DNA of 63,752 nt, filler included, from Hausera hauseri (Eukaryota), in assembly GCA_046269625.1 (NCBI GenBank). It is 10 parts of 10 records of this genome, joined end to end, with 100 filler letters (N's around TTAATTAATTAA, not from the genome) between each part and the next. Parts side by side here need not be neighbours in the genome. Positions count along the whole stretch, not along the records: positions 40,204 to 45,037 come from JBJURY010419921.1; 9 more parts are not named here. The stretch is one strand, 5' to 3'. Both the position numbers and the translations under genes were made by a program. The notes beneath the pieces are model-generated. The model was not told the DNA's origin and searched no databases. It worked only from the letters and a program-made list of their open reading frames with translations. Below, piece by piece: positions 1,225 to 63,204 of the stretch (position 1 is its first letter; each line of letters opens with the position of its first letter).

Positions 1225-1302
1225 GACAGGGGTATCCGCGAAAGTATCGAAATGTGGGGTGGAGAGAAAATTATAGATATACGAGGAAATACTGGGTACC
1301 CC
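1215..1302 (+). promoter_or_regulatory. -1 programmed ribosomal frameshift signal (slippery T TTA AAC plus downstream stem)
   Basis: TTTAAAC at 1215-1221 in gag phase just before the gag TGA; -1 frame is open from 1221 into pol; GGGGTATCC (1229-1237) can pair with GGGTACCCC (1294-1302) after a 7-nt spacer. Confidence 0.8.
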
Positions 1303-16770: not shown

Positions 16771-16934
16771 CTCATTGGTTCTTGAGCATAGTATAAACAA
16801 TGACGGTAAGTATGTGGTGATTTACAATATGGGTGCATGGTTTTCATCTGTCTGTCCCAGTTTACCAAATCTTTCATTTACGTTTGGTTCAAATTGTTTT
16901 AATGCAAGCAAAACCCACACCATCGACGACAACG

Positions 16935-17731: not shown

Positions 17732-17732
17732 G

Positions 17733-18287: not shown

Positions 18288-18387
18288 NNNNNNNNNNNNN
18301 NNNNNNNNNNNNNNNNNNNNNNNNNNNNNNNTTAATTAATTAANNNNNNNNNNNNNNNNNNNNNNNNNNNNNNNNNNNNNNNNNNNN

Positions 18388-22100: not shown

Positions 22101-22373
22101 TTCGGATTTCTTTGTGATTTGGTAGAGAACAACAATGCAGTAGTTATTGGACACAACAACAGTAATTTACCGCACATCATGAAGGCTATCGCATATTGTC
22201 TGATGAAGGATGGATTACCAGATACGAGTCCGGTTCATGGTAGATGTTTGAATATCGTCAAAATGATCCAGTCAGATGGTGATTGCTTCTCGTCCTGTTT
22301 CAACAGTCTTTTCAAGGAAGAACAAATTGCACTGCAGAAGGCAATCGAGAAATCGGTGAATTCATGTCAGTGA
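19110..22373 (+). pseudogene. IPO5: Importin-5 (karyopherin beta-3) intronless pseudogene
   Basis: HLAVETFVTLSE, MALDRMS, RVRYAACNAIGQL, LVLEQI, RGKTIEC, DDPQHSYMISAWTRICK, GLEDKAIACQMLVCYA, LLKFYFNDEVR, WLPIWEDVEE; no introns; at least 6 stops/frameshifts. Confidence 0.9.
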
Positions 22374-30099: not shown

Positions 30100-33000
30100 C
30101 TAAAACGTTTTCTGAGCATTCTTTACGGACTTTCTCTGTCTCTTTATCATATTAGTCTCTTCAATGTCGTTAACTGATGGCTCAACACATTTTCGTTTCC
30201 TGCTGTAATTTGGTATTCTTTTACAATTTTTTCCCAAGGCCATGAAAGAAAATTCATTGATTCTTTCCATTTGGTTGTTGAGAGTTGATACCCATCTTTT
30301 TCTCGATTTTTTCCCTGTATTTTTCTCATATTCATCGTCATCATATTTAACCTCCTTTATTTTCTTGCCTTTAATACATCCCAAAATTTCTCTTGCAACT
30401 GTTGCTTTGTCATCTATGTCTGAATCAAAATATATACCCATTGAACTAAAGTTTTGAAGAAACGTTTTTTGTCCTCTGCTTACTACGGATGACTTTCCAT
30501 ATGCACTAATCAACGCTCTATTAATTACTGGATAATATTCAGACTCGATAAGAGCACCAACAAGATGTGATGTATCTGTCAATTTAATTCGGACAACGTT
30601 CAGTTTCAGCAGAGAATTACAAGCAGTGTCAATGTGTTTCCAAGCAGTACACACAGATCCCGATACCACACAATACTGCTTCCTCCGTTTTCCATATCGA
30701 CAGCAACACGAACCGTTCCATAGAACATGCATGCACTTGTCCATACTCTCTATAAACGCATGCTTCCACATTAATTCAGCTCTATCGACATCTATTTGAA
30801 TCCACATTCTTTTGAATTCTTCAATCGCTAATTGTTTTGGCGGAAAGTTTGGCGTAATTAGCACTACGGAATTTGGGCTGTCTGAAACGACAAGAGCAAC
30901 TATTATTTTTGCTGAATTTGGAATACAAAATGTGCTGCATTGACCGGCTTCCGTATACATTTTTATGGCATTTTCCCAGTTTGTGCCTTCGTATATATTT
31001 TCCACTTTGTGTATGTATATACTTCCTGATGGATTGATGAATCGTTCTGTCGAAATAAGTCTGATTTGTCCGTTTTCACATCCAACATCTCTCGTTCCGT
31101 AGTCGTATTCATTCAACTCTTTTGCTTCTTTTATTTCCAATTCCATAAGGTGCATAAAGTATTGATAAATTGCATTCTGGACATTCAATTCGATACCAAG
31201 TAAACGATTCAGAAACTTATTAACGGATATTTCTTGGTCATCATCTAGCCCAACGCTTGTCAAACTCGTTCTTGCCAAATTCTGAAACATGATTTCGTCA
31301 AACATATCCAGACATACTTTAGGCACATCTAAAAATGCGTTTGTGCCAAATATGTTTTTCAGAAGCTTCTGTATGGCTCGCTCGGCATACTTGTTATCAA
31401 TATTAAATTTGGATAAATCAAGCATTTCAGATGACTTTCTATCACCTTGAGTAAATGCACCAAGAGTCTGTAATCGTTTTGCGATGGAAGCCACAAATCG
31501 TTTTTCTCCATCGAGATCAGATATAAGTAACACATAATGAGGAGCCACAACCTGGTTTGATCTATGTGTTCGACCGAACTGTTGAATGACTTTGTCGGCT
31601 GACCATGGTAATTCAAGAGTTATGTGAAGTCTTTGACTGTTGTTTTTAAATCGTCTGTCAGAGTGTAAGGATATACCAGTGCTAGCAACGTCCGAAATTA
31701 TGGAAACTATTTTTTCCCCCGAATTAAATAAATCCTTTTCGTATAAATTGACTTTTTCAATAGTAAATTCATTTTGTATTCGCGATTCGTAACGAATTTT
31801 TCCATCATCATTCATGATTACTCGACCTCTTCTTCCGGTTAATTCTGAAACGAAATCCGGACCACCAAACATTAAAATCAGTTCGTCCAAAATATTGTTT
31901 GGTAGTAATTTTCGCAGATCGTCTAAAGATTTTAGTAAATTTTGTTTTGTCTCATTATCTAAAAGACTTGATAAATTTTCTCTCATATCGTCATGTTCAT
32001 TTTCTTGAATAAATTCTTCCACTGTGTTGTATTCTAAATTTCTCTTTTCTGTGAGAAGATTTGTAAAAGTATCATAGGCAGCCGAGGGAAACTCGTTAAG
32101 AATTCCATTCTGTTCTTCTAATAATCGGTTCGTATTCGCCTCACCAGTCGATTGAATTCCAATAACCACAGACTTGTTGTTGATTAAGGCCGAATTACTG
32201 AGTTCAAAGCATTTGGTCAATTTTGCTGATAGACAAAGTTGTTTGAAAAATCGTTGATGAGCAGCCCAGAAAACTTTATGAAATGATTGGTGTTTTGTCT
32301 TCCTTGATAGCGAATCAGTCGTGAGAGCATTATACAATTTGGTCCACAGTGTTACACAGAGGTCATAAATTGTTCTGAAATTGTATCCTTTTATTTGTAC
32401 GCTAGATGTTTCTACAACCTGAACTTCGCAGCTAACGTCCTTGAAACTTATTTGTCTGGACATGTACAGACCTTTCGATTTCATTTCCATAGCTATCAAT
32501 TCCAACGCACTAACATCATGCTTTAAAAGGAATTCTTCAAAATATTTGAATTCTGTAAAACAACTGCCTTGTCCCCACAAGCCCAGACGCAACATATATG
32601 CCATATGCTTAGGTTCTGTAGCTCCAGTTGCACTCACGTATACGATGCGACTATTTGGTAGAAACTGTTGGATATCAATGACAGCTTTGGCTGTTTTTGT
32701 TGTTCCAATCACATTTTTTGCTTTGTGGCATTCGTCAAAAATAATCAAGCCATCGAAATCTTTACCGCACCATTCTAAAATTTGATTTAATCGGCTTCTT
32801 TGAAGTCCTAATTTTTCTTGACAAATCACACAATTATAGCTTACAAACAGAACTCCATTTTGTTTATTAATAGGGTCATATGACATTTCACTCAAAGAGT
32901 AGATATCGACATTTAATCCAATGTCCTTTAAATCTCTTTCGGCGTCTTCTTTCAGCACATTTGAAACAGATATCCAAATGGCTTTCTTCCGATTTGCAAT

Positions 33001-33531
33001 AATATTCTCATATATAATTCCTGCTATTGTTCTACCTTTTCCAACTCCCGTACCATCTCCAAGAAAGAATCCTGCTCGACATTTATCTGGTAAACGTTCT
33101 TCATGTTTCTGACAAGCATAAATGATGGCTTCCACTTGAGCGTTTGAAAGTCGACCGTCACTTATAATGCTTGATGGAATTTGTAGCAGATATGTCTGTT
33201 CAGGTGGCCTAACAATAGATAATGAATATGACTCAACTAATGAAGTAGTGTGAGGCAAACCTTCATTTTTTATCGATGATTTATATTCCTGAAATGTACT
33301 GTTGTTTGACAATTCTAGATCTTTAAAAATATGTTCCCAATTCTGCTTTCCATACAACCAGCGAAGGTATGCATTCGTCTGCATTGACGACGAATTTATC
33401 ACAGGTATTTGTGTAGTCTGTAAATTATTTACAGAAACAACAGACGACGTATGAGCGTAACCACATTGAGATTCGTAACTCTTTGGATTCATAATGATTG
33501 ATTTTAAATAGGATTTGTTACCATATGACAT
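30100..33531 (-). CDS. SBNO: Strawberry notch family SF2 helicase-like protein, intact and intronless (1143 aa)
   Basis: LSNAQVEAIIYACQKHE, GFFLGDGTGVGKGRTIAG, IIFDECHKAKN, YVSATGA, FWAAHQRFF, SELTGR, GISLHSD, LELPWSADK, QQFGRTHRSNQ, FLNRLLG. Confidence 0.93.
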   Translation of the reverse strand: MSYGNKSYLKSIIMNPKSYESQCGYAHTSSVVSVNNLQTTQIPVINSSSMQTNAYLRWLYGKQNWEHIFKDLELSNNSTFQEYKSSIKNEGLPHTTSLVESYSLSIVRPPEQTYLLQIPSSIISDGRLSNAQVEAIIYACQKHEERLPDKCRAGFFLGDGTGVGKGRTIAGIIYENIIANRKKAIWISVSNVLKEDAERDLKDIGLNVDIYSLSEMSYDPINKQNGVLFVSYNCVICQEKLGLQRSRLNQILEWCGKDFDGLIIFDECHKAKNVIGTTKTAKAVIDIQQFLPNSRIVYVSATGATEPKHMAYMLRLGLWGQGSCFTEFKYFEEFLLKHDVSALELIAMEMKSKGLYMSRQISFKDVSCEVQVVETSSVQIKGYNFRTIYDLCVTLWTKLYNALTTDSLSRKTKHQSFHKVFWAAHQRFFKQLCLSAKLTKCFELSNSALINNKSVVIGIQSTGEANTNRLLEEQNGILNEFPSAAYDTFTNLLTEKRNLEYNTVEEFIQENEHDDMRENLSSLLDNETKQNLLKSLDDLRKLLPNNILDELILMFGGPDFVSELTGRRGRVIMNDDGKIRYESRIQNEFTIEKVNLYEKDLFNSGEKIVSIISDVASTGISLHSDRRFKNNSQRLHITLELPWSADKVIQQFGRTHRSNQVVAPHYVLLISDLDGEKRFVASIAKRLQTLGAFTQGDRKSSEMLDLSKFNIDNKYAERAIQKLLKNIFGTNAFLDVPKVCLDMFDEIMFQNLARTSLTSVGLDDDQEISVNKFLNRLLGIELNVQNAIYQYFMHLMELEIKEAKELNEYDYGTRDVGCENGQIRLISTERFINPSGSIYIHKVENIYEGTNWENAIKMYTEAGQCSTFCIPNSAKIIVALVVSDSPNSVVLITPNFPPKQLAIEEFKRMWIQIDVDRAELMWKHAFIESMDKCMHVLWNGSCCCRYGKRRKQYCVVSGSVCTAWKHIDTACNSLLKLNVVRIKLTDTSHLVGALIESEYYPVINRALISAYGKSSVVSRGQKTFLQNFSSMGIYFDSDIDDKATVAREILGCIKGKKIKEVKYDDDEYEKNTGKKSRKRWVSTLNNQMERINEFSFMALGKNCKRIPNYSRKRKCVEPSVNDIEETNMIKRQRKSVKNAQKTF

Positions 33532-33733
33532 TTTAATTTTTCGAAATTATCATTTAACTTAACTGTATTGGCTGCTTTGATCATAATTCCAAAAGTGTAA
33601 TATTTATATCATATTTGTTAAAATTATATAAACGATATTGGTTGAAATTAATCGACATAGTTCCGTTTTCAAAAAAGTTAATTAGTGTATTCTTACTGTG
33701 GTACATTTTTAAAGTAAAATATTTATCCGATCA

Positions 33734-36373: not shown

Positions 36374-38961
36374 CTTAGAAACATCTGTTTAGATTATTAT
36401 GAAATATTTCCGTGTTACATATATTCTGCACCAGGATTAACATGACAAGCAGGAATGAAATTCACTGGTATGAACCTTGGTGAAGCTTGACACGGCTTAA
36501 AATATTACAAAGAAGAAATATACGATAAACTTGTATTTTTTGAAGAAGGAATAAGAGAAGGGGTTACAAGTGTGTTAGGAAATAGAAATATCAAATGTAG
36601 TAATTCATATACACAAGAGAAAGTTAACACCTATATGAAGTTGAATAATTATGAATTAGATGTTGTTATGAATGATTTGCACGACCAACATGAAAAAAGA
36701 AGAGTAACCCAAATTTTAAAATAGATTTGAGGAAGTACCCAGAACCAAATTATTAAATGTATTATTACGCAAATTCTTTGTATGCATCTGCAATGACATT
36801 AGAATTACCAACAGGTGAAATGGAATGGAGGGATGATTTAAATTACGTGCGAAGTTTGAAACGTAGTGATGGATATGTGTATGAAGTAGATATAAAATAT
36901 TCATATTCCATCAAAGAACAAACAAAATATTATCTATTTTGTCCAGAGAAGATTGAACCAAAAGAAGAATTGTTTAGTGCTTGTCAGAAACGCATAACAC
37001 CGCACAATTACAAAGCAGAAGAGAAACTAATTTTAACCCAATTTGATAAGAAATGCATAAAAGAAGGTAGAATGTTAAATTGGCACCTAGATCATGATAT
37101 TATTTTAGAAAAAGTTTATCGAAAATTAGTTTATGAAAAATCAAATTGGTTAAAACAATATATAGAATTCAACATTGAAAAACGAACTGAAGTAAAGAAG
37201 AATGGTGATGACTTTGGTGATAATTTCTTTAAACTATTAAATAATTCATTTTATGGAAAAACATTAGAAAATATTAGAAATAGACAAAATAATGAAATTG
37301 TGAGTAATAAAGAGAGATTTAGAAAATTATCAGGTAAACCAATTTTTAAACATTGTAAAATATTTGATGAGGAAGTTGTAGCAATTTACATGTTGAGAAA
37401 TTCAATATATATGGATAAATTTAATCATATCAGTTTTTCCATACTAGAATTAAGTAAATTAATGATGTACAGATTTATTTATGATGGCTTATATAGTATT
37501 TATACAACTGATAAATGTAAAATAGATTTTACTGGTAGTGTAACAGAGGACACGCCAATTATTTTAAAAAAGAATGGAAAAATAAGAATTAAAAAAATCT
37601 CTGAAATTTCAAACAAATGGAATTTATTGCTTGAAAAAGAATATCAAGAACCTAAACATTTAGAAATTTGGACAAGAAATGGTTGAAAGAAACTCATGAA
37701 AGTAATTAGACATAAAAGAAGTAAGAAAATATATAGGGTAAGAACAAAATTAGGATTTGTTGATGTAACAGAAGATCATTCATTATTAAATAAAAATAAC
37801 CAAGAACTAAAACCAGATCAATTAATAGTGAATGAAGCTAAATTATTACATAATAAAATATTCCTTAATGATAACAAAATTACATTGAAACAAATATTCG
37901 AAGATATTTATGAAAATGATGCCACTTTTATAGAAGACAAATGGGCATCTCTTTGAGGGATTTTTGGTGATAATTCTTCAGGAATCTATCGCTATCAAAG
38001 TGGAACAAAACACTGTTGTACATTTAATAACCAAAATTTATTCCTATTACATAAAATAAAGAAATATGTTAAAGAAATATTTAATAACGATTGTAAAATT
38101 TATGATACAATGAAAAGTTCTAATGTTTATAAATTAAATATTATTAAACCAAAATTTTTTACAGAATATTTTTCAAAAAATTATTACAATAAATTTCAAA
38201 AAACTAAACGTGTACCAGAATTTATTTTGAACGCAGATAATAATATTAGATATTGGTTTTTTGTAGGATTTTACGCTGCAGATGGAAATAAGCGTTTTAA
38301 TGAAAGGAATAAGACTATTGGATTTACCCAAAAAGGAAAAGAATGTTTTAGTGGATTGTATTATTTAGCAACATCAATAGGAATAAATATTGTTGTATCT
38401 GAAAGATGGGATAAACCCAATTGCTTTAGTGCTGCACAATGTAAGAAGGATATCACAACAGAAGTAAGAACAGTACGATTCCTAAGACAAAGAGAAGAAT
38501 ATGTTTACGATATAGAGACTGAGGATGGATCATTTAACTGTGGATTTCCATTGATTGTAAAAAATACTGATAGCTGTTTTGTTGAAATAAAGGATAAATT
38601 AGATAATATTAAGGAAAACTTAAAAGAATGGATAGTTCCAAATGTTTTAGGCAAAATTAAAGATGAATTAGAAGACGATTACATTACAGAAGCAGTGTTT
38701 TTAAAAGCAAAATGTTATGACTATGAAACAGTAAAAGACAAAAAAGTTCAAAGATGTAAGGGAATTAATAAATATAATAAACTAACAATTGAAGAATATA
38801 AAAATGTCTTATTTAATAATGAAACAATTTATAAAAGAAATTATGGATTAACGTCTGATCACCATAATATTCAATTATATAAACAAAAGAAAATTGCACT
38901 TGATCCATTTGATGATAAAAGATTTTTCATGAATTCTGTAAATAGTATTCCATTTGGATAA
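36374..38961 (+). pseudogene. Maverick/adintovirus-type pPolB C-terminal half, intein-containing
   Basis: YSAPGLT*QAG, FFEEGIREG, YANSLYASAM, KLLNNSFYGKTLENIRNR, SILELSK, split motif C (FTG|intein|TDSCF), GKIKDE, FLKAKCY, ALDPFDDKRF; 36757-38961 is one frame with two TGA stops. Confidence 0.9.
37537..38565 (+). mobile_element. Intein (~343 aa) with LAGLIDADG homing endonuclease at the Pol-c site
   Basis: Block A SVTEDTPIIL; block B VDVTEDHSLL (TxxH); endonuclease motifs L*GIFGD and FFVGFYAADG; block F YVYDIETEDGSF; ends IVKN followed by +1 Thr of TDS. Confidence 0.9.
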
Positions 38962-40228
38962 AAGTGATTTTTTAAAAAGATTGATAAATTAAATCAAAGT
39001 GATTTTTTTGTTTAGCGGAGCATATTTTTATCCATTTATAAAAACAAAAAATTTTGTAACAAAACTTTTTGGATTTATACCTTATTAATAATTTATCTTT
39101 TACCTCAACTAAAAATTTCATTTCTTTTCTAATAACATTCTTAGTTTTTCTATTATTTCGTCTTTCACTAAAAAAGTCTCATTATTATTCTTATTTTCTT
39201 TGTTTGTTCCTTTCTTATTTAAAGAAGTTTTACTTAAAGCTTCCAGACCAATTTTACACTTAATAACAATGAGCAAAATGTAAGAACTTCATCTTATGGC
39301 AGGCTCCACAGACATTTCATCAGCAAGGTACACTATAGGTTTGCATGCTTTCAGAGTCATAAAGCAACTTGTTACAGCTTTGAACGCTATTTTATGTTTA
39401 GCTTTTTGCTAGTTTAGCTTTTTGCATTTTAGTTCTGTTTTAGCTTCAACTCAGTATCAGCATCTTTGACAAATTTCATCGAGCTCATTCAGCTCTCAGC
39501 GATCAAACCACATTAAATATTGTTCCTGTTGTTCAGTGATTTCATCCGTTTTTCTGTAACTTAAATAAAAAGTCGGTCAAACCAGCCACAGCTGAATGTA
39601 AAGGATCTGCGATCTGAAGGTGTGAAAGCCCCAAACAGTTTTTGGGAACACGCAGTGAGTGAAGTCCTGGACCAGTAAAACTTTCAAAGCTGAGCAGCAA
39701 AGAGAAGCAGGTGGATTTCAGCTGGTACTCCCATCAGCACCACGGCTGCTGGAACAGGTGATAAACTGGTTTTCACACCGTGTTCTCACTGATATCACTG
39801 CTGACCATTAGCATGGGGGTGGGGGTGGAGGGAGAGAGAGAAGAGATAATAGGAGGCACAACTTAAACGATCGAGAGTCAGGCGGTTTTTATTTGTGAAA
39901 ATATGGTGTCGACATCATAGAATGTCTTGTGTCGAGAAATGTGAGATAGGTCCAAGGCGCCCCACTAACATTTGACACCAGCGTATTTGGTCTGTCAGTG
40001 AGGAATATCTTGCACGTGACGCTTACATTCGAACTGCGGTAATTGTTTGCGTCCTTTTAAAATGGTTTTATAGGAGCAAATATCAACATCGTCCTGATGA
40101 TTANNNNNNNNNNNNNNNNNNNNNNNNNNNNNNNNNNNNNNNNNNNNTTAATTAATTAANNNNNNNNNNNNNNNNNNNNNNNNNNNNNNNNNNNNNNNNN
40201 NNNACTTTTCGCACGCATCGCGTGACCA

Positions 40229-40310
40229 ATCACGTGACGCGTGGGCGGATATCACGTGACGCGTGGGCGGATCACGTGACGCGTGGGCGGATCACGTGAT
40301 GCGTGGGCGG
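40229..40310. repeat. Four tandem 20-bp units ATCACGTGACGCGTGGGCGG (E-box plus GC-box), probably LTR U3
   Basis: Units at 40229, 40251, 40271, 40291; polypurine tract AAGGGGGGG on minus strand at ~40312-40320 directly adjacent. Confidence 0.85.
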
Positions 40311-41050
40311 ACCCCCCCTTGTTCAAGAACGCTCTTTTTTCCCCTACTGAGCAGATAAGTTCTAACGTTCTCGTTAGAAGTTTGCACTTGATTTTATCTT
40401 GCGGGTACTGCGTGCAATGAATGCTCAAATTACAAATTCTAGTCTTAGCTATGAATGTTACAAAAGATTTTAAGCCTTAGGGTAGTCCAAATCCCTCTTA
40501 AAGAGCGACGAAAAAACTATGAGATTTTACAACACAAATATATTAAATAACAAGAAATATACCACACCTTCTAAATACAAGTTAATATCAGAATCGTCCA
40601 ACGGGAAATATACAATTCACGAATCAAATCAGTAATATCGTCAGCAATGAATAACGTCAATCTGCAATTCTTCTGGCTTCGGTTATCGATCTGTACTCTC
40701 GACTTCAAATTGTTCACTTCTCATTTTGTACACTGGTTTATATATCATTTCCATTATCTGTTTATTTTCCGTTCCCACGACCATTATTGGTTTTAATATA
40801 ATATTTACAAAGATTATTCACCCGTTTAATCATATTTACATTCATTTTCCCACAATTGTGATACTATTTACAACTTAATCGTCTTCATGTGTCAATTCTT
40901 ATCAGTAACAATTCATTAATTCACACACGATAATTGTAGATTCACATTATTATCTACACATAAACAATTGGTAAATTCACACCATTATTTACAATTTATG
41001 CCATACAGAGTTTTCGATCATTTAGCCACATTATACTACATTTCTCCTCC

Positions 41051-42316
41051 CTAGACGGCACTTTCGAATGAGCCCATTGCGTCAGTAGAGATGCCGGTAG
41101 TTTGTCGTAATTGCTCCATTCGTCCGCGTAAGTCCGCTTCCGAATCTACTTCATTTGAGGGTGATCGCGAGTCAATATAATAGGACGTACTGGCTTGTTC
41201 AGGAAATATTTCTACAATTTTATTTTCTCCGTTCGAATAATATCTTAGCCTAGTGGCTTCGGCTCTACACACTGGGCAGGTCGTCTTCCCATTCTTCAGG
41301 GTCCACGTTTCTAAACAGTATCGGCAGTACTTATGACTGCAGTCTTTGTTATCTAGGACTACGAATCCTTGGTATAGATCTGCATCACAAACAGGGCATT
41401 CTTCTTTTTCAGCCGCATCAATATCCACTAGGTTTTCATCCACTTCTATTCTTTCGAACACCAGTCCCTTTTTATCTTGATATAAATATCCATATAGTCT
41501 CTTTTGTTTGGGGTCTATCGAACTTTTTCTGGGGTCGTCAGATACTGCTACTAGGGTCCATTCGACTATTTCTTGTTTGTCCAGATCGGGAATTCCTGTC
41601 TTCTTGTATTGTCTTTTTAACTGAATTCTAACTTGAGTATCCACAGGAATTGTTAGTCGGTTAGTGCCACTTTTTGATTGAAATATGGGGGCTAGGTATC
41701 TGCCAATGGTGTGGTCCTCTTTAGCATAACCATTTCCGCTTACTATTCTTCTGGGAACAGTTGACACGTAAAATACGGCTTCCTTGATTTTCCCTTTACT
41801 GTAATATTCGGCCATAACGAGAATTCTTTTATACTCCTTTACTTCCCCGAATTCCGTAACCACAATCGGAATATCTTCGTCCCAGTTCTTCCTGAGAACA
41901 TTGACTTCTGATCTAATGACTTTGGATTTCGCGATTTCCAACGATTTTTCATTTTCCCTTTTCTTTTCTCGATTCGATAATGCTCCTTGATTGTCTTTGG
42001 ATTCTTCCGAATTTGAGTTGTCTAGAGCGGTTCTTTTACTAGTCTTGCTTCGCTTTTTGTGGATATAATCTAGGAAAGAGATTTTTATCTTGTGCTTCTT
42101 GGGAATTTCCATGTCGTCTGCTCTGGATCTCGGTTCTTCTCGGACCTTACTGGTTGATGGCTCCAACGAACTACTCAAGTTTCCCTTTTGATTATTCGGT
42201 ATTGTTATTCTAATTTTGTTTGTCCCTTGATTTTCTATTTTCGGATAACCAGGGTATTCACTAAATCCTTTTCGGAACTTCTGTATCAGAGATTTTGGGT
42301 TATTTTCAGACATCAT
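41051..42316 (-). CDS. C3HC4 RING-finger protein (putative E3 ligase), element accessory ORF
   Basis: CPVC-x15-CSHKYCRYC-x12-CPVCR; intact 421-aa ORF. Confidence 0.85.
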   Translation of the reverse strand: MMSENNPKSLIQKFRKGFSEYPGYPKIENQGTNKIRITIPNNQKGNLSSSLEPSTSKVREEPRSRADDMEIPKKHKIKISFLDYIHKKRSKTSKRTALDNSNSEESKDNQGALSNREKKRENEKSLEIAKSKVIRSEVNVLRKNWDEDIPIVVTEFGEVKEYKRILVMAEYYSKGKIKEAVFYVSTVPRRIVSGNGYAKEDHTIGRYLAPIFQSKSGTNRLTIPVDTQVRIQLKRQYKKTGIPDLDKQEIVEWTLVAVSDDPRKSSIDPKQKRLYGYLYQDKKGLVFERIEVDENLVDIDAAEKEECPVCDADLYQGFVVLDNKDCSHKYCRYCLETWTLKNGKTTCPVCRAEATRLRYYSNGENKIVEIFPEQASTSYYIDSRSPSNEVDSEADLRGRMEQLRQTTGISTDAMGSFESAV

Positions 42317-42331
42317 GTTCTGTATGGGATC

Positions 42332-43495
42332 TCATCGTAAATGGTCGTACACATTCTTGACACATTTTGTTCGTTGACTCGCGGTCATTAATTTCGGAAA
42401 TTTAAATCCTTCGCCGTTTATGGCTTCAAGCATCATTTTGAATTGTGATTCCTGTGATGCTGTTGTTGGAAGTAGGCATCCTCGCCTTCGCATTAGGGTG
42501 TTCTCCACTTGACTCACAATGGCTGGGTTCCGGCTTATTTCTCGTATGCCTGCTATGTATTCTGGTCTAATTTTTAATCGTTCTAACTCTTCATGTACCC
42601 GGAATCCAGTAATGATATATCCATACAAACAATGACTGATATTCTCTTGAATCTCCAGGAAATCTTTTTCCTTCTTGAGCTGTGGTTTTGTGATTCCAGT
42701 GACATCGGGAAAGGTATCTTTTATTCTAACTCTCGGCGCGATTATTCTGTTTAAAACTTCTTCTCCGTTTGTGTTTCTAATCGATATTTCGATCGGAAAA
42801 TACCATCCATCATCCTTTTCTCCGTAGTTTACTGCTAAAATTCGGGTATTCCGACCGTCTGGGACCAATCGGTATGATTCCCCACTTTGTTCAATTTCAT
42901 CTTCTGAAGGTTTTTGTATATAAATCAGTGGGGGTAATGGTTTCATCAATTTGGTTCTCCACGTCATTTCGATCATAATTTTGGTGGGAATGTCCGCAAT
43001 TCTAAATTCTAGGGCATAATCCATAAGACTAAAACAGCATAGTTCGTATGTGCTAAACTTCCACTGTTGCCCTTTTTGTGTACTCCAGGATTGTCCTACG
43101 ATCCTGTATTGAATTTCTCCATCAGCGACATGTATATACATTTGCTGATGCGTTGGTTCATAAGGAATTAGGTCTCTCAAATGGTACACTCGTACATCCT
43201 TAGGACTTCTCATGGCATATAGCCGAACCAATCTGTTCTCTTCTAGCCCCCATTTTAACCCATTAGGTATTTCACTTTCTCGGGTAAATTCCCGATAGTT
43301 GGTATTCTTCAGATTTTCTCCAATTTGTCGATACAGACTCTTTGATAAGGGTTTCAGGACCGTAACGTGCTGCTGTAGGAAACTGTCGATGTCGAAGCTG
43401 GTTGAGGAAATCTTCGCCTTCTCGGTCATACTTACTTTGCTGAAATAAAAATAGAGGTTAAGCCTAAGACAGATCATCGTTTTGAAACAAAACAT
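42332..43495 (-). CDS. Protein with C-terminal DEDDh exonuclease-like (ISG20/REX4-like) domain, catalytic residues apparently degenerate
   Basis: EISIRNTNGEEVLNRIIAPRVRIKD...VTGITKPQLKKEKDFLEIQENI...IITGF resembles the REX4/ISG20 core; likely start MTEK at 43429. Confidence 0.6.
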   Translation of the reverse strand: MFCFKTMICLRLNLYFYFSKVSMTEKAKISSTSFDIDSFLQQHVTVLKPLSKSLYRQIGENLKNTNYREFTRESEIPNGLKWGLEENRLVRLYAMRSPKDVRVYHLRDLIPYEPTHQQMYIHVADGEIQYRIVGQSWSTQKGQQWKFSTYELCCFSLMDYALEFRIADIPTKIMIEMTWRTKLMKPLPPLIYIQKPSEDEIEQSGESYRLVPDGRNTRILAVNYGEKDDGWYFPIEISIRNTNGEEVLNRIIAPRVRIKDTFPDVTGITKPQLKKEKDFLEIQENISHCLYGYIITGFRVHEELERLKIRPEYIAGIREISRNPAIVSQVENTLMRRRGCLLPTTASQESQFKMMLEAINGEGFKFPKLMTASQRTKCVKNVYDHLR

Positions 43496-43534
43496 TTTAT
43501 CTGTCTGATGATAGGATAACCCGATCAGTAATTG

Positions 43535-45037
43535 TCAGGTTATGGTATCATAAGGTTCGTCTTGGTACCCTTTTACCCAATAAACTCCCTTTCGATTTTT
43601 AACGCGTTTTTTATAATTTTTGGAGACTAGAAAAATCACCGCTATTATTACGATAAGAACGGAAATTGACACACTACATATAGTTATTATTGGTAGATTG
43701 TTCGGTTCGGTAGAACTTTGTGTCGTGAATACGTCTAGAGTACTGATATCATGATACGACATTGCTTCAATTTTATTACCGAGCGTTCGTACCGTAAACG
43801 TTTTAGGGTTTTTACCCTCTGCGGTCATTCTGATTATATACTCATGTTGCGGTCGTAACGACTTACACGCCGTTCCTAAACTATTCTTTTTCAAAATCAC
43901 AACTTGGTTAGTATGCAAGGTACGACACTCAATTTTGACGTCTTTATTTAATGTTTCTTCAGCATAGAATAGGATTCTATCATTTTTCACTAATATTTTG
44001 ACTGATATGCTTCCTGGCATTTCGCTCGCAGTAATAATCGTAATACTGCGAGTTGTGCTCGGCGTCGTGGATGGTTTTCCCGTAGTGGTCGGAAGTGGGA
44101 GTTCCCATATTCCATTTTTGGGACGATATCCTTTTAGGAAAATACTCCGTTCACCTGGATAGGTGTCGTACAAATCAAATTGTATTTGGTATTTTTGTCC
44201 TAATCGGACTACGCAGCATACAGTGGGACGTCTGTTGCCCAGTGAACAATATGCTGGTCTAGGAATAGAGGATTCTAACGGCGTAAGCTGGACGGAGATT
44301 TCCTTGTCCTCCGGTATGCCAAATTGGGTCTTGATCCTAATACATTGGTTCTTTAAGTCCTTGTGTATTCCGACAATGTTGTCATCCAAGATTCTATTAA
44401 TCGGGTTGGTGCTTCGAATTATTTCATTTGTTTTAGCTTCATTGGCGTCCCTTTGTTGTGGCATTCGTATCGTGAGCTCCGAAGCTATGTCGGCTTGAGC
44501 TCCAAATTTATAGGAATAGAACAGCTGAAAGCTATATCTATAGACTTTTCCGAAATCTAAATTACAGCATCTCCTGTAACGTCCATATGGAAAATCACAT
44601 ACTCTTGTATCGTCTCCGGCAGTTACAAATGTTATTTGAAATCCTATGTGGCTCGGAATCGGTTCGTCTGTTTCGAACCATGCACATGGTTTACTCCAGT
44701 CCATATCGCGTACTCTGAGTGTCCGTAAATTTCGAATATCCTTTTGTTTTTCAGCTTTGGCGCTCGATTTCACCGTGGGCATATACGAAGCAATTAACGA
44801 TAAGGCTAGGATTATCTGTACATAAGATATCGGTCTATTCACTATCGATGACGTCTTCTTTTCTTTAATTGTTTTACCGGAACGTAGATTGTAGCGTTTG
44901 TCTGGTCTTATCTCGGTTTTGACCACCCTTTGAATTGATGTGACTTCTTCTTTACCATTTTTGTTTATGTAAACTGTAGTCGGCGTAGTTTTCGTAACTT
45001 CGTAAGGTCCTCTACCTGTCCTGGTAAGCTTAAGAGA
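43535..45037 (-). CDS. Gypsy integrase C-terminus fused in-frame to an env-like type-I membrane protein (5'-truncated by contig end)
   Basis: Frame open from 45037: RGPYEV (GPY), RYNLRS, then hydrophobic ISYVQIILALSLIASY, Cys-containing ectodomain, T/S-rich stalk, TM IITICSVSISVLIVIIAVIFLV, basic stop-transfer and Tyr-containing tail. Confidence 0.75.
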   Translation of the reverse strand, partial: SLKLTRTGRGPYEVTKTTPTTVYINKNGKEEVTSIQRVVKTEIRPDKRYNLRSGKTIKEKKTSSIVNRPISYVQIILALSLIASYMPTVKSSAKAEKQKDIRNLRTLRVRDMDWSKPCAWFETDEPIPSHIGFQITFVTAGDDTRVCDFPYGRYRRCCNLDFGKVYRYSFQLFYSYKFGAQADIASELTIRMPQQRDANEAKTNEIIRSTNPINRILDDNIVGIHKDLKNQCIRIKTQFGIPEDKEISVQLTPLESSIPRPAYCSLGNRRPTVCCVVRLGQKYQIQFDLYDTYPGERSIFLKGYRPKNGIWELPLPTTTGKPSTTPSTTRSITIITASEMPGSISVKILVKNDRILFYAEETLNKDVKIECRTLHTNQVVILKKNSLGTACKSLRPQHEYIIRMTAEGKNPKTFTVRTLGNKIEAMSYHDISTLDVFTTQSSTEPNNLPIITICSVSISVLIVIIAVIFLVSKNYKKRVKNRKGVYWVKGYQDEPYDTIT

Positions 45038-45476: not shown

Positions 45477-48144
45477 TTAAAAGGGTGATGTTGCGTCAAC
45501 AGCAGAAATGTTGTGGATAAAAGCAGGGGAAAAACAAGGAATAGAAATCGTTAATAAAAGGCATATTAAAAAATGTTTGCCAGACGAATAGTACACAGTG
45601 ATAAATCTCACCTCATTGTGTACCAGTATCCGTTCAATGCTGTCCTTGGGATCTGTGAAACCATTCTTGTCCAACGATGGTATTCGAAAGAACTGTCGAA
45701 ACTTCGATAAAACATCTTCACAATTTCGAATGGGAAATACTTCGAATCCGTAGGCAATGCAAAGTTTTAAAAACCTTAATATATGTGAATTGGCCCGCGG
45801 TGATTTGCTGGACATTTCGACTGTAGCATAATGAATGTAATATAATGCAGCGATCAGTCCCAACTTTGTCGGCGGTACATCATTGGCATTTTCTTCATTG
45901 TTATAAGCCATATTTTCGTAATTTTCTAAATATGAAAGAAGCTTCGGTGTCACGATATTCCAAATATGAGGCAAATTCTTGTAGAGAATATAAACAAGCA
46001 CTTCAATGGTCTTGATTATACTCAACCATCTGTAGTTGGTTGATAAAGGAACTCCAGCAGGAACCAATAATCTAGCGATAAGAAATTGCGGCTGAGGAAT
46101 GTTGAATTGAGTGTTGTAGTCTATAATGTAATATATATATCATAGTATACATCGTTAGATTCTGGTACGTTATCATCAGCACTGTTGCTTCCATCAATAT
46201 CACTGGTTATAACTTTTGAAAATAAAGTATATACAGGGTTGCAAATGACATCAAACCATTGGTATGTGGCTAAATCCAATTGGGAGTTTTCCCTGTTTAT
46301 TAATTGAGTGTAGTTATCGAAACGGGTAGAATTCGGTTCAATGGATGGGGAAGGATTCCATGCTGTAATTAAAATACATTTTAGAATACTGGACGCAGTA
46401 TTAATTCGATCAGTCTTTTCCTTACTTTGCCGCTCGGTTCTATCAACTTTCAACTGTTGTGCAACAGTTTCAATTATATCCTTTAACGGTACGGTAAATG
46501 GATCCTCACAAAAGTCGTAGAATCTTATTCGAAACGTAGGATCTTTGGAATTGTTCGTGAATTGAAACTCAACATGATGCGACTCAAACAGATCATATCG
46601 ATTATACTTTTCCATCTTTCTTAAGACTTTAAGTGCGGTGCGATTTACTTGATACATATTTTGGATACATATTTTGATATAAATAATCCGAAACATGTTG
46701 TTAATGCATAAATCTAACGTTCTTAAACGCTGGGTTATTATGTTGCATGATAAAACATAAACGAGCGGTTCCATCAATAGCAATAAATGAGGTAGTAATG
46801 TACTAAGTCTCACGGGGGTGATAATACAAAGTTCACTGAGTAAATCCCGTACTTGATTGGTATGCAGTGATCTTGACAAAGCGCTCAAACTATTCAACAT
46901 ATGGTGCAGCAAAGGCAAAAACTGCCTATATAGTCTTTCGTGAGCTCCACCACCAAATGAATGAAATAAATAGCGTAAAAGGCAAATGAAAATACTGGGA
47001 TCTTTTGCGTAAAGAGAATATTTTATACAGTCCAGTATAATACGTCTAAGATGCATCTCTAAAATATTTTCGAAGCAAGCCAAATTTCTATGAATGGAAT
47101 TGAAAATTAACTTCAGCAACTGAATATGTAAGTTGGCCTCGGGTGTACCTTCCCCGATAATCTCTATGTTATCAAGTACGATAATATTAGATTGGCGAGT
47201 ATAGCCGAATTTGTTCCCTGTTCTTCTTGAGAACTGCTCAAAATAATTTGGGATAACTCTAATCCAATATTTCTGTAGAAATACTGGTTGTAGTGATAAT
47301 TTCTCCACTGCGCTGACTGATTCTGTATTGATTTCTATAAAATTGCTGTGAATGTCATCCTTCATCTTTTCACACTTAAAAGAAGAGTGATGACCAAGTC
47401 GACATCCATGAAATGCTGCATTCAATTTCTTGAAAAATATCAACAGAGCTTTTTGCAGCAATTTCCCGGAATCAAGAGGTGTTGCAACTGCATAAGCGAT
47501 TTCCTTTGGTCTGTACAAAAGTTCGAGATAGTATATATCCCACTCACGAATTGCATATGGTGAAACAGTTAGACATTCCTTTTCTTTGTCAGGATAGCCA
47601 TCAGACAAACACAATGGGTTGCCTTCAAATGAAAAGTGACTAAGACTATTTGACCTTTTTGTCGAATTGATGTAAATGAGTTGTTCATAAATCTGTTGCT
47701 AATTGACAACTGCGAAAACATTGAAGATACGTGATTATTGTGATTAGAATTGGATAAAGTGGATGGTCGCCGATATGTGAAAATCCCGGTAATGGATTGG
47801 AAGCACTACACACATCGTTTGTTGAAGGCTTTCCAGTGAACACCATAAACTGGAAGGGGTTGTGGTTTGCACGACTAGACATTACCTCTGCCCGCAAGAC
47901 GATGAAATGACTTCCATGTCAATGGCCCATCTATCTTTTAACTGGACTCCAATATTCTAGTGTTGCTGACAGCTTCTTGAAGTAATGGTTGTAGCGTCAT
48001 TAATAATCTAATTTGATCGTTATGATTTTGTGGAATCGGAACGTCTTTTTTAGAATTAAAAATTGTACTGACTAATTGCCTATCACGTTCGTTCGTTAAC
48101 CGGTTAATTCTTGAATCTGAAAACTGAACTATGTTCGAGAGCAT
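45477..48144 (-). pseudogene. TRRAP: TRRAP/Tra1 internal fragment, intronless and disrupted
   Basis: LLKLIFNSI, LLRYLFHSFGGGAHERLYRQFLPLL, ELCIITPVRLSTLLPHLLLLMEPLV match the TRRAP HEAT region; broken into several ORFs. Confidence 0.8.
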
Positions 48145-51244: not shown

Positions 51245-53937
51245 CTTCCGTTAGAAATATAATTATGACACCAAGTATTTTAAATCTCTGCATAATGTGG
51301 TGGTTACTTGATTGACACAACAATGCTTACGTAATGCTTGCACACACTTTGTAAAACTTGCATTTGTAAGTATATTGAAATCAACCGTTATTGTCCGCTC
51401 TGTCAGTGTCTAATTCAAGAAAGCCGATTGGGTAAAGGTAGTACGAAACCAGATTTAGTTTTACAAAAGGCCATTTATAAACTCGTTCCACATATTATGA
51501 AATGAGAAATGAATAAAATCCGCGACTTTCTCTCGAACAACGATGATACTGAAAGTGTTTCCTCAACAGAAGAAGTGTGCCTTTTACAGTCCGATGGTAA
51601 ATTGCACTGGAATTCTCGGCGACTTAATTTTGATGATTTTGAACTTTCGGTAATCGGTGCAAAGTCATTCGGTAACAATTCGAAAAAGAACTGTTCCAAA
51701 CCCTTACAATCGATCTTCAGTCGACTAACCGTGACATTGTCGAGCAGCAAACACAACACTTCAAGACACAGATCATTCCACGATTTCCGTAATTTCATTT
51801 GGTCTTCATTAATGTCTATAATTGATTTTGAAACTTTATAATCCGTTGGATATTCGACAAGAAAAATTAAATGCCAATTCGAAATTTGACGATTTAATTT
51901 GGCAAATTTTCCCAACATTGTCCGAAAGCAAGTCGATCTTAATAACGGTATCGACATAAAGCGAACCTAAAACATCGAAGAACGTGTTGAAATCATCAAG
52001 CGAAATAAGATCCAGCGGTGAATCCGTCAGAAACATAACGGGCACACAAAGAAAATCGACAAAAGGTTGCAACTGTAATTTACCGTTAGTCGAATGATGT
52101 AAACAAAATCCAATCATAAATTGTGTCGAGATGAGTTTAAATGGGAATTATTTTGTTGCTGTTACAGACAATAATTTGGTTTGCATATAGTCGATACCTG
52201 CTTGATTTGTTGTTTTTGACCATTTGTACATATTTCCAGAAAACAACATTGTACATAATTCTTATTCCTTTGACTTTAGTCTTTATTCCATTATAACATC
52301 AACAACAGGAAATGGCACAACTCTACTTTGTCGTGATATTGGTCAAACTGATAACATTTTATGGACTAAGTATTCGTATGATTTCTCAATTGTTTCTAAC
52401 GTATCATTCATCGAATACAAAGATGCAAACTTAATTTTAAAGAAAACTACAGTTTCTTGTTCGTATTACCAATGCATTATTGTACAGAAAGACTACGAAA
52501 TTTGGGAAAGTGTTTAAAGTCATATCAGCACCAAAAACCACTGATCCAATTATCGAGTCAACATCGCAACAAATAAAAGATGTCCTTTTAAGATGTGTTA
52601 AAATTTCTAACTGAAATTACAAACTGAATTATTTTTTCAACACATTCAGATCCGGCCGAGTACTATGAGTGTCTTAATAGTATTTCTCACATGCCTTACA
52701 AAATTGTTATGTATAAAGTTTTCAACAGTTCTCCAGTGCAGTGTTTTATATGGCTTCCATTAGTGCATTAGAAATAAAAGCGATGGTTGTGTTGCCGTAT
52801 GTCGTTATCAATGTTGCCGGATTTGACGACCTTTTATTTGTAGTTTCTCGTAACATTATAAAGGATAGAAAAAATTGTTCTAATAAATGATAAATTTTTT
52901 CAATTGAATTCAAATTTTCCAGCCATTTTGTAAGAATTTATCTTTTGATTTGATTTTGTCACTATCAATTGAAATTTATATATGATTCATTGTTTTTTTC
53001 CTTCGATTTATCGATACTACGAATAGTCTCAAGAAAACAATTAATCCAAAAGGTATGCTGAATGATGCTATCAACAATTTCTATCCCCATTATCAGCGAT
53101 ACACTCAAGGAAAATTTCTATTGACAACAGATTTATTTCAAACGATGCTGTCTTTGGTTTACCTTTTATCGCGAAGCGAATGATACGACCTCCTGATACT
53201 GCTTGTACAAACAGCACGTTAAACAATAAATGGTGTCAGAAAAATTTGTACCATTCGGATATGCCCACAAAGATAATGCTCTTATTTCCATCCGTTTTAA
53301 ATTCTAAAAATTATAATAATAACAAATATACATTCTACCCCTATTTGCAAACGGGTGCTAATGTTCTGTACGTCGATACCGGCTACCTTTTCAGTACGGC
53401 TGGCGGCGGCTCTTCGTTGGCTTTAACCGGATGGGCATCTGTTTCCTCCCTACCAGGTTTACTAACGGCACCAAATAAAATGCAGATTTCCGTCAGTTTG
53501 AAACCGTCGAATATGAAATTTTCCCAATTCCGCGGTACCATTTCGGGAATAATCAAATGTGTGGACATTTGTAAGACGGGGGAATTTGAGGTGACATTGA
53601 GACCGATTGAGGAAAANNNNNNNNNNNNNNNNNNNNNNNNNNNNNNNNNNNNNNNNNNNNTTAATTAATTAANNNNNNNNNNNNNNNNNNNNNNNNNNNN
53701 NNNNNNNNNNNNNNNNTCTTCCCGGATAGGACTTTGTTCCGGGGTGAGAATAGTGAAACCCATTTGGCCCCAATGCTCTCTGATTCGTCCTCTACTCCCA
53801 TTGGCTTACTTCCTTCCCCCCGATGACGTGTCCTCTTCCCATTCGTCAGTTTCACGTCCCCGCGATGACGTGTTCTCCTCCTATTGGCTTCCTTCCTTCC
53901 CTGGGGGGTTTGGGGAGAACTCCTTCCTTCCAACTAC

Positions 53938-60065: not shown

Positions 60066-61094
60066 ATGGGCATTTATCTGGTACTTGATAATAACAGATC
60101 ATTATCACAACATGACGACAATGACAATACCGCTAAACAGTTTACCATACACTTGGACCAAGCGGTCGATTTACGCCACGGAGCCTGGACGTGGCTTTGA
60201 TGGTATTCACATTTACATTTTCACCAATGACAATACGCCAGAACAGTGGCATTTACTTTACCCGTCAAGAAACGTACCCTATTTCAAGTCGTTTGAGGAC
60301 AATCCGACACAATAACCGATATACTCTTTGCAATTATTCGCAACAACATTTCTCGGTTTATGCTTACTTTTCAAACCACCTTATGAAACGAATGCATCGA
60401 AATCAAATTAAAATGCATGTTAAATCTATAACTGATTTTCAGTCAGCCAATGTACACTAAAAACGCCTACCGCTAGGTGGACATGTTATAATTGGTGAGA
60501 AATTGGACCTTTCATCCAATACAGAATCCGATATTAAAGTAAAGTGGACTAAGTCAAAATCAATATTCCGTTCATATATTATATCACACGATTTTCTAAT
60601 GGAAACGGAACTGGAATTGTGATAACGTCAAGAAAACGGCTACATTAGCTGTAAAGACATGTAAAATAAACGCAGATGGTCATATTTCCCTAACACTACA
60701 TGACAATGTAACATATTTTGCATTTGATGAATTATTGGCTCAAAATCTAGGTTTCTCAAAACGCGAATTCTATCAAACCGTTGTTGGACAATCTATTGTT
60801 GCCAAATACAAACCGCAACTTTATGAAGCATTTCATAGAATCAACATTTTAACGGACTTAACCAAATCCGTACTCGTTCGTGGAGAACGTAAGCAACTAC
60901 TGGCTTCTATCGAACTGGATTCTAACACGTACAAAACATTGGGTGAAACTGTTCGCGTTAATATGCTCAGTCACATGTATTTACCATTGTCACACAATAT
61001 TGTGCACAGTATTTCCGTGTATATGCTTGATGAATTTTGGGAACCCATTAAATTTCTGTTTTCGGCAACGACACATTTGACGTTACATTTTTGA
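60065..61094 (+). pseudogene. Minor capsid (penton-like) protein 1
   Basis: MGIYLVL...NTAKQFTIHL...GAW; C-terminus LLASI...MYLPLSHN...THLTLHF. Confidence 0.7.
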
Positions 61095-61140
61095 CGTTGT
61101 CAATAATAAACGAACTGCAATCATCATTGATATCATTGTG

Positions 61141-62162
61141 AATATGAGTATTTACATGGTGTTGCCGATAACTCCTCCGAACAATTCAGCCAGTGAATAC
61201 GTTGTAGATTGGAAAAATCCTCTGAATTTATCTGGAAAATGGGAAATTCCACTGACGGAATTTAACTTTCCCTACGTACCGGTGACATTGAAAGGTAGTA
61301 TGAAAATAACGTACAACAAGACTGTTATTGAAACCAAAACACATTCTTGTTCCCTGACACTTATTGACAATAAAATAATAGTTGGAGAATCGGTTATTCT
61401 CAGGACCAGTACAAATTGCGGTTTATACGGCAAGATGGGTGTTTTTATTTTAGCGGAAAACTTACATTTCGTGGTAGATTTTGAATTTACTGTCATTTTG
61501 AGTCCTCTGTTACGGCGCAAAAATTTGGATTTAAAAATACAAAGTACAACAGTAAAGATATTAAAAGTGAATATGCAGTTGCCCCAAGATTAAGTCCCAT
61601 ATATTACCAGACAACGGTGAAATTTACCTATACAGCCCCAAGGGTGTCAACGTCATACGTATCGATTGACGACAATGTCTATTGCGAATCTGTAGCACAT
61701 CTCCGTCAACACTTTTCTTCAAATCAAAAGTACAAGGAGATATTTAAAGTTTGAGAGTCAGATGCAAGTAGGTACATTAAATTTTAACAGGCTAAGCATA
61801 TTGTCGACATTTCATTGGATAAAGCTTTGGACATGGCAATGGATATTGTGAAACAGCGGTTGGAGGCGAAGACGGCGGCGGCACATGTTGCAACACTTAA
61901 ACTCACACTGAAAACTGGATTAAGTCAAATGTACATTTACGTGAGTGTCACCGAACAAATTTTTATCGGTGGAGTACGTGTACCGCTACTCCGTGCAGTT
62001 TATCTGGAAAGCAGCAAGTATATTGCTGGCGACAATGTCACTGTCAAGCTCGATACAAACAATGTTGAAGTGAAAATCCGACGTGATGCGGGCTACGTTA
62101 TTGAATTTCCGTACGGTACCGCAACTTCTCTAACTCTTCATTTCCGTCGAAACCACGATTGA
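61141..62162 (+). pseudogene. Minor capsid (penton-like) protein 2
   Basis: MSIYMVLP..NNSASEYVVDWKNPLNLSGKWEIPLTEF; MYIYVS...VPLLRAV...SLTLHFRR. Confidence 0.72.
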
Positions 62163-62344
62163 TTCTGAAATCGTTTCCATTTACAGTAAACCCCAGCAAA
62201 GCGGTGAACTGTAGCATTTCGTTGGTAAACAGTATGGCTCTGGATAATTGCGTAAAATTCGCTGGCAGTGGCTTCAGAAAACGACATAGAGCATCATCGA
62301 CTTCATCAAGTATAAACAAACGTCGTCGTGGTATGATTTTCGAT

Positions 62345-63204
62345 TGGTCGACAGAAAAATCGCATCTGCAAAATCTCATTTGTGTATATTTTACAAAGGC
62401 GCACCACAAGTTGTTATTGACAATGTGGCATTTGAAGAAATCTACCCTGTTGATTCGGTTTCAACGGACGATAATATTGACATTCAATTTAACATTATGG
62501 TATTGGACAATGGATTCCATGATTCGACTCAAACGCAGCGACAATGTCTTTTGTTCGAAAACTCCAGTTGCAAATCTCAAACCCATACTTAAAATTACCG
62601 AGGCACGATTGTACGTACGTTGTGTAAAGGTAAACCATCTGTGCTCATGGGACATTGATTGGGCTTGGAAATACAAAATGCCTGTTACCCATTACAACGC
62701 AGAGAACTCGTCTTTTACACCATACCCAAAGGTTCAACAACGTTTTGCAAGGACACACTGATTGGAGACATGCGATTGCCGAAATTTGTACTCGATACAT
62801 TTCAAACGATTGTTCAACAAACGGCAGTTATACCCCCGATTCGGAAACGTTTACCCATAGCAATATGAATTACAACTGTTTGACTAAAAATGTGGATTTC
62901 GTTGACACACTAGCAGGATTTCGAGAGCGGCAATTATGTTTGCACATATATGCAATCTATCATGCGCAAAATGGGTTTGCTGAACAAAAATATCAACGAT
63001 AGTATATTAATGGATTTGTTCAAGTCCACTTATCCATTCTGCACTTCTGTCCTGGCTCCAAAATATAACGCTGAACAGATTCAACCACCTCAGCAGGGAA
63101 ACCTTCACCTTGCTAAAGCATTTCAGCAGTCTACTGCGATGTACATTTACGGTGTATTTAATGCCGAGGTTGAAATAACGAAAAACAGAACCGTCGTTGT
63201 ATAA
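62345..63204 (+). pseudogene. Major capsid (double jelly-roll) protein remnant with internal deletions
   Basis: EEIYPVDS...IQFNI, LKITEARLYVRCVKV, MRLPKFV, YGVFNAEVEITKNRTV; position between penton and protease. Confidence 0.68.

Follow-up and report, generated by a model that had tools for sequence, protein, structure and literature searches.

A gypsy-type element of Hausera hauseri with a predicted FN3-type membrane protein in frame behind its likely integrase

The question raised by this locus is whether a membrane protein that stands behind pol, in the usual env position and in the Pol reading frame, is an envelope fusogen or a surface protein of another kind. The window, by which we mean the whole 63,752-nucleotide stretch of DNA that was analysed (filler included), is made of ten contigs joined by N-spacers, and the element is encoded on the minus strand of one of them, at 40204-45037 (4,834 nt). 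A single minus-strand frame stays open for almost 4 kb of this contig, interrupted only by two TGA stops (43535-43537 and 42332-42334), and three ORFs of 500, 400 and 426 codons share it. Behind the third stop, a 12-nt purine tract and the dinucleotide TG precede AT-rich sequence and a tandem repeat of 20 nt; the 3' end of the element is read as follows:

41041-41052, minus strand: polypurine tract followed by TG, from the sequence
40204-41040, minus strand: probable 3' LTR, truncated at the contig border, from its TG start after the purine tract and the 20-nt tandem repeat with CACGTG boxes

The polypurine tract and the TG-starting 3' LTR, together with a GPY/SH3-like module of the integrase C-terminal type (seen by ESM only), are the Ty3/Gypsy features of this contig, which likely corresponds to the 3' half of an LTR retrotransposon of that class, present in high copy number. 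Gag, any upstream Env and the whole 5' half fall outside the contig, so that the element is known here from its 3' half alone. Both of its ends are cut by the contig, on which there is no second LTR. Contig pieces matching the element in four public sequencing runs number 12,714, 1,773, 303 and 349 and are mostly 85-99% alike; pieces in such thousands and of such identity point to a large and diverse family. The stretch is present in seven of the runs listed, none of which is recorded as RNA, and no related locus was found in metagenome or viral contigs queried with either protein. Inside the probable LTR, the tandem repeat at 40229-40311 consists of four copies of the 20-nt unit, carries CACGTG and GGGCGG boxes, and is among the deepest-covered parts in the sequencing runs.

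The contig stops at 45037 and covers only 53 Pol codons, and the RT, RNase H and integrase core are therefore off the contig. What is left of Pol is a short tail and the linker behind it:

44879-45037, minus strand: likely C-terminal tail of the integrase, with a GPY module before RYNLRS, truncated where the contig ends, from ESM features
44837-44878, minus strand: basic in-frame linker from RYNLRS to the signal (codons 53-67), from its substitution pattern

Residues 1-58 resemble, according to ESM, the clusters Integrase_p58_C (0.91; that family is present in 59% of the cluster's members), MLVIN_C (0.90), SH3_Tf2-1 (0.86) and IN_DBD_C (0.85), and the three best ESM matches (0.91-0.94) have no family in common. 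Sequence comparison was less informative. The tail has no Pfam match and no PDB sequence match, pairwise alignment did not establish its integrase identity, and it is absent from the eight ORFs listed in a scan of the window with our own profile of the three other Gypsy integrases found there, a profile on which 275 of 2,000 GPY-fixed shuffles scored as high as the tail. The order of GPY followed by YNLR recurs in the integrase of the window's first contig. Taken together, the GPY...RYNLRS segment is likely, as judged from ESM features, the C-terminal tail of an integrase. The first contig carries Gag and Pol of another Gypsy element (199-5786, plus strand), whose integrase runs about 190 residues past YNLRPR in a Q/N/R-rich extension in which no signal or TM segment was noted.

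The interval 43538-45037 (minus strand) forms a single open frame, 500 codons long, which the TGA at 43535-43537 closes. No stop interrupts it from RGPYEV/RYNLRS into the hydrophobic stretch, as the first-pass annotation of this DNA had stated, and all the motifs that it quoted are present. The 65 stop-free codons from the contig end to the signal would arise by chance in about 1% of cases under the composition of the contig. A stronger argument comes from the copies of the element. The junction set consisted of pieces covering 44785-45037 in runs X1, X2, X4 and X5 (969, 140, 24 and 64 pieces, 1,197 in total); differences at 8% or more were considered common, and copies of less than 82% identity were left out. 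There are 38 common differences. Thirty of them are synonymous, where 11.3 would be expected, a result reached in none of 10,000 simulations. None of the 38 creates a stop or a Met; by itself, the lack of stops is not significant (P 0.42). The synonymous excess extends over the integrase tail at 44879-45037 (15 of 17), the linker codons 53-67 (10 of 16, no stop and no Met) and the signal codons 68-84 (5 of 5). Gap-free pieces bridge the distance from RYNLRS to the signal in each of the four runs. The sole indel listed at the junction measures 9 nt, a gap of 1 nt occurs in one piece of depth 19, and the loose ends of some pieces leave the alignment within the linker. The in-frame fusion is thus common to the copies, and the stop or frameshift that had been named beforehand as the sign to the contrary did not appear.

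The remainder of the 500-codon ORF can be divided as follows:

44759-44836, minus strand: internal signal-peptide-like stretch with its h-region at 44789-44821, from hydropathy; the cleavage site is putative
44453-44725, minus strand: FN3-like domain 1 with four conserved Cys, from VIA
44090-44383, minus strand: FN3-like domain 2, which duplicates domain 1, from VIA and the repeat test
44018-44089, minus strand: Thr/Ser-rich linker, 54% S/T, pLDDT below 50
43772-44008, minus strand: FN3-like domain 3 with the L-x-P...Y pattern of strand F, from multi-domain alignments to tandem FN3 only
43625-43681, minus strand: TM helix, predicted type I orientation from the flanking charges
43538-43624, minus strand: 29-residue cytoplasmic tail ending in Y-x-x-I-T, an ending shared by homologs P0002 and P0003

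The signal-like stretch (residues 73-83) reaches a Kyte-Doolittle value of 2.58 in an 11-residue window and the TM helix (residues 453-471) 3.17 in a 19-residue window, and the hydropathy scan of the 500-codon ORF found no other hydrophobic segment. In all three proteins, 7 K/R fall within the 15 residues after the TM helix and 0-2 before it, which identifies the basic stop-transfer side. Only two homologs, P0002 (36% identity) and P0003, were found among 1.84 billion representatives. At 36-47% identity, they keep the signal, the Cys residues, the TM helix and the C-terminus, and the signal motif RPISY.QI.LALSLIASY.P is kept in P0002. No cellular homolog of the surface protein was found among the same 1.84 billion representatives and, with only two homologs available, no donor receptor gene can be named.

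The fold of the ectodomain was assessed with a single-sequence AlphaFold model (pLDDT 59.5, pTM 0.30), which consists of three all-beta units with strands assigned by DSSP. A Foldseek search against the PDB returned tandem-FN3 proteins in nearly all of the 42 rows shown (best E 8.6e-09). The global TM-scores of these matches are low because the domain orientations in the model are unreliable. With VIA, domain 1 aligned to 4jmh_A with Z 8.8 (rmsd 3.0, 91 aligned residues) and to 9n7g_B with Z 8.4 (rmsd 2.0, 78 aligned), and domain 2 to a contactin-1 FN3 domain with Z 8.0 (rmsd 3.6, 99 aligned). Only 9 of 48,161 chains reach Z 8, a value which the tool regards as middling, and the tied top rows comprise cytokine receptors, fibronectin, Tie2, ROBO and contactin at 7-20% identity. 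The hallmark of FN3, a tandem array of seven-strand beta-sandwiches of about 90 residues, is seen in the DSSP strands, in the VIA alignments of domains 1 and 2 (Z 8.0-8.8, rmsd 2.0-3.6) and in the three-domain alignments of Foldseek. ESM adds fn3 clusters for the ectodomain at 0.81, a lead only. Pfam gave no fn3 match above cut-off for the window protein, and homolog P0003 has a weak one that is below cut-off (E 0.12). These findings are in agreement with the FN3-like fold proposed earlier from a motif recalling FN3 strand F, and we predict from the model that the ectodomain is composed of three FN3 domains.

The same proposal had envisaged two or three related units followed by a T/S stalk, and this held in part. 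Units 1 and 2 are related to each other, with z 5.5 in the window protein and 10.2 in P0002 (0 of 500 shuffles each), but no relation of unit 3 to units 1 and 2 is detectable (z -0.6 and 1.7; best value in P0002 2.7). An S/T-rich stretch does exist, but the richest one (54%) lies between units 2 and 3, and the segment preceding the TM helix has 30%.

The absence of obvious fusogen hallmarks, another point of the first-pass annotation, was borne out. The protein has no hydrophobic segment between signal and TM that could serve as a fusion peptide, no furin site is conserved (the single furin-like RYRR is not kept in P0002), this copy has no N-glycan sequon, and no F, gB, class II or other fusogen is among the structure-search rows shown, nor is the known errantivirus env that was to be watched for. 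Phage tail proteins and FN3 proteins make up most of the 50 viral structure rows shown. The label "Env-like" is, in turn, probably wrong, and the protein is more likely a second surface protein. Platyhelminthes errantiviruses such as Smed_errantivirus_1/2 have a gB-type Env in GAG-ENV-POL order (PMC13524379), and in Burro elements, Env is located in frame between gag and pol (PMC6431247). According to the portion of the text available to us, the former are, like the element described here, high-copy Ty3/gypsy elements with membrane proteins, and an Env before Pol would leave the slot behind the integrase free for a second surface protein. If the present element is of that kind, the FN3 protein would be this second surface protein.

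Our preferred reading, which we hold with moderate confidence, is that this gypsy element encodes in its Pol frame a type I FN3 membrane protein that is released by an internal signal and likely serves in attachment or adhesion and not as a fusogen. The open frame, its conservation among the copies, the hydropathy pattern and the high copy number are direct observations; the FN3 fold and the integrase identity of the tail are predictions. A ribosome finishing Pol would meet the internal signal, and the ectodomain would be translocated into the ER. By analogy with viral polyproteins, signal peptidase would free the N-terminus of the surface protein, and the element's protease or signal-peptide peptidase would then have to free the integrase from the signal anchor. 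Sorting through its Y-x-x-I-T tail would bring the surface protein to the surface of the cell or particle, where it would bind a host surface partner, while the task of fusion would fall to a separate Env, whose gene probably precedes Pol by analogy with the flatworm gag-env-pol elements.

The first TGA and what lies behind it suggest that the protein may have a second form. The following features are concerned:

43529-43537, minus strand: TGA followed by CAATTA, a readthrough-type context, from a sequence motif count
43455-43522, minus strand: predicted RNA stem-loop that begins 12 nt past the stop, from folding z and P0004-compatible pairs
43430-43458, minus strand: branch-point-like site, pyrimidine tract, AG acceptor (43440), 4 nt and GTAAGT donor (43435), from the sequence
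42335-43534, minus strand: ORF2, 400 codons in the same frame, whose C-terminal half (42536-42844) is weakly DEDD-exonuclease-like
41054-42316, minus strand: ORF3, in the same frame past the second TGA, with a C3HC4 RING at 41264-41401

A stop followed by CARYYA occurs only here among the 262 stop triplets of the contig's minus strand, and in 9 of 6,761 (0.13%) in the window. This hexanucleotide is reported to stimulate readthrough about equally after UGA and UAG, to about 15% in one reporter context (PMC4132726), and the stems of viral readthrough sites follow the stop after a spacer of 7-12 nt (PMC3159437). As far as these two sources go, the combination found here of stop-CAAUUA, a stem after a short spacer and an in-frame downstream ORF is like the TMV-type stop-CARYYA and the alphavirus-type 3' stems. 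No such stem is directly behind the other two stops of the contig frame, and the second TGA (42332-42334) has neither the readthrough motif nor the stem. The folding z of the stem depends on the length of the window chosen, being -5.1 for 90 nt, -3.77 for 101 nt, -1.0 for 140 nt and -1.14 for 141 nt. Rfam gave no family worth noting.

A homolog of ORF2, P0004 (56%), is open and in frame over the stop region despite a 30-residue insertion in its linker. Its residues break none of the 15 testable pairs of the stem; they force eight pairs, two of these with changes on both sides, a fit that was equalled by 6 of 5,000 shuffles and by none of 306 other windows. This comparison is with one relative, known only as a protein, and the inner stem has to be shifted by 1 nt to match P0004. 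The first TGA is unlikely to be a private mutation of this copy since both homologs of the surface protein end at the same place, and no variant that would make the second TGA one is among the 40 of 892 differences listed. On balance, the motif and its surroundings speak slightly for functional readthrough at UGA-CAAUUA. A minority of ribosomes would then continue past the stop and add the 400 residues of ORF2 to the cytoplasmic side of the protein, and two versions of a cell-adhesion-type receptor, one short and one long, are probably made by the element itself.

Splice signals overlap with the stem and could account for its conservation. Acceptor 43440 has the best pyrimidine tract of the 136 YAG sites in the contig, donor 43435 is one of three GT[AG]AGT sites in the contig and is of phase 0, and Met36 of ORF2 is 10 nt downstream of the acceptor. 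With the best acceptor of the contig and a donor in the same stretch, splicing is a real rival to readthrough, with which it may coexist. It is quite conceivable, if not the reading that we would choose, that the surface protein ends firmly at the TGA, that ORF2 and ORF3 are accessory genes expressed from spliced mRNAs only, and that CARYYA and the stem are by-products. The position of the best 3' splice site just before Met36, with the phase-0 donor after it, would suit this arrangement, as would the Y-x-x-I-T end kept in three of three proteins, just as a free C-terminal docking motif would be. Against it stand the rarity of stop+CARYYA among the stop triplets of the window, the in-frame position of ORF2 and a linker that is open both here and in P0004. 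Moreover, the splicing and readthrough routes are not exclusive, and spliced mRNAs probably exist for ORF2 and the RING ORF alongside the readthrough that we favour. The 4 nt between the acceptor and the GTAAGT donor (43436-43439, minus strand) form a possible micro-exon, and F-R-L-V-S in P0004 allows the same layout.

ORF2 itself is poorly defined by structure prediction (AlphaFold pLDDT 30), and P0004 alone had no PDB match. A two-sequence profile gave three PDB matches, all of them to DEDD exonucleases (SDN1, E 0.017; ISG20L2, 0.02; PolC, 1.3). The Exo I motif reads N-x-G here and N-x-A in P0004, versus D-C-E in SDN1, i.e. the first two acidic catalytic residues are missing. With Exo I devoid of its D and E, an exonuclease-like ORF2 would be inactive. 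ORF3 has a RING that is recognized by Pfam (zf-RING_2, E 9.7e-08, 32.6 bits against a cut-off of 27.3). Matches of its N-terminal part to orbivirus VP6 and CAT were below the Pfam cut-off and were set aside as compositional.

One may go further and combine all these elements. One frame would encode the integrase and an FN3 mimic of a signalling receptor, readthrough would swap the 29-residue sorting tail for a membrane-tethered pseudo-exonuclease, splicing from the phase-0 donor 43435 to the phase-0 acceptor 42320 would yield a transmembrane RING ubiquitin ligase, and a separate Env would perform fusion in an attachment/fusion split of the herpesvirus or paramyxovirus kind. In this complete form, the scheme is speculative and rather improbable.

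The start of the surface protein also bears on its expression route. The first Met of the 500-codon ORF is residue 86, beyond the h-region, and the signal is therefore not obtainable from an AUG start in this stretch. Hence, it has to be reached from upstream, by a polyprotein, by splicing or by a non-AUG start, and we favour the polyprotein route because of the coding constraint on the linker. That the FN3 protein is made mainly from its own spliced mRNA or from a GUG start, the integrase link being real but secondary, seems unlikely to us. P0002 begins at its own Met, 11 residues before RPISY, and may thus be a relative that starts the gene separately; this Met aligns with GTG codon 66 here, for which no variant is listed among the copies. 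Two positions resemble splice acceptors, 45021 and 44816, which rank second and 17th among the 136 sites, and the ORF3s of LTR elements usually come from spliced messages (PMC5408684, in the portion available). A search for a Pol-fused homolog among proteins of 876-2,500 aa, weak by the tool's own note, found none. An independent start does not account, however, for a linker that is coding-constrained from RYNLRS to the signal and free of common stops, although Pol could end after RYNLRS.

The protein might also act inside the host cell, as an immune decoy or as a modulator of host signalling that mimics a cytokine receptor, and not on a particle as an attachment protein. We regard this as doubtful. 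Class I/II cytokine receptors are indeed among the tied top VIA rows (IL20R2 and IFNGR2, Z 8.7), the domains contain Cys pairs, the tail has a Tyr motif, and a RING gene adjoins. Nevertheless, the tie in Z includes fibronectin, Tie2, ROBO and contactin, function does not follow from a common fold, and the protein contains no WSxWS motif. The idea that the surface protein is itself a fusogen of a new type, for which its usual env position and the lack of any other Env on the contig could be adduced, is very improbable given the missing fusion segment between signal and TM, the RYRR not kept in P0002, and the FN3 fold.

The closest known systems share features with the attachment-type element that we favour. 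Burro/GYPSM1, the giant gypsy elements of planarians, likewise have a single polyprotein, an in-frame Env and many host-like domains, including RING and other ubiquitin-related motifs; in contrast to the compact 3' half described here, the available part of their description contains no FN3/TM protein behind the integrase and no readthrough (PMC6431247). The LTR elements of bdelloids resemble it in having captured non-fusogen genes after pol, the non-env ORF3 cargo comprising a DEDDy exonuclease, a GDSL esterase and TM ORFs (PMC5408684). According to the same partial source, the bdelloid ORF3s are separate and keep their catalytic residues, whereas here the cargo is in frame with the integrase and the exonuclease-like ORF is of the SDN1/ISG20L2 type and without the first D and E, unlike the DEDDy cargo. 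An in-frame stop parts pol from env in SIRE1 (PMC2194720, as far as its accessible text goes), whereas here the stop would serve to lengthen a membrane protein on its cytoplasmic side, which is closer in logic to the coat-protein readthrough extensions of plant viruses. "Fibronectin" does not occur in PMC13524379 or its seven supplements, nor does "FN3" in the supplements, and no paper that links FN3 domains to a gypsy element was among the matches listed, in a search outside of which lie subscription papers, Repbase and bioRxiv supplements. What is probably new here is the likely second surface protein of FN3 type, in frame behind the likely integrase, together with its probable readthrough extension. 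Animal gypsy envelope genes have been described as F-type or gB-type fusogens; the FN3 protein, if our reading is true, would be an attachment or adhesion module in its own right and cellular in type. It offers a way into the open question of how target cells are reached by env-carrying elements outside Drosophila, and annotation by position, i.e. "env after pol", would mislabel such genes.

The other contigs of the window contain features of their own. A protein-primed family B DNA polymerase (Pfam DNA_pol_B_2) of a Polinton-like element is encoded at 36757-38961 (plus strand). An intein-like insert splits it at 37537-38565; the insert contains a LAGLIDADG remnant (below cut-off, E 6e-04) and is broken by stops in this copy. 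The same contig carries an intron-free Strawberry notch (SBNO) ORF of 1,148 codons at 30100-33546 (minus strand). Broken and apparently intron-poor pieces of importin-5 (19142-22373, plus strand) and TRRAP/Tra1 (45477-47698, minus strand) are possibly retrocopies. Finally, the ORFs at 14272-18335, 53066-53668 and 60600-62761 resemble, by eye, Polinton/adintovirus polymerase and capsid-type genes.
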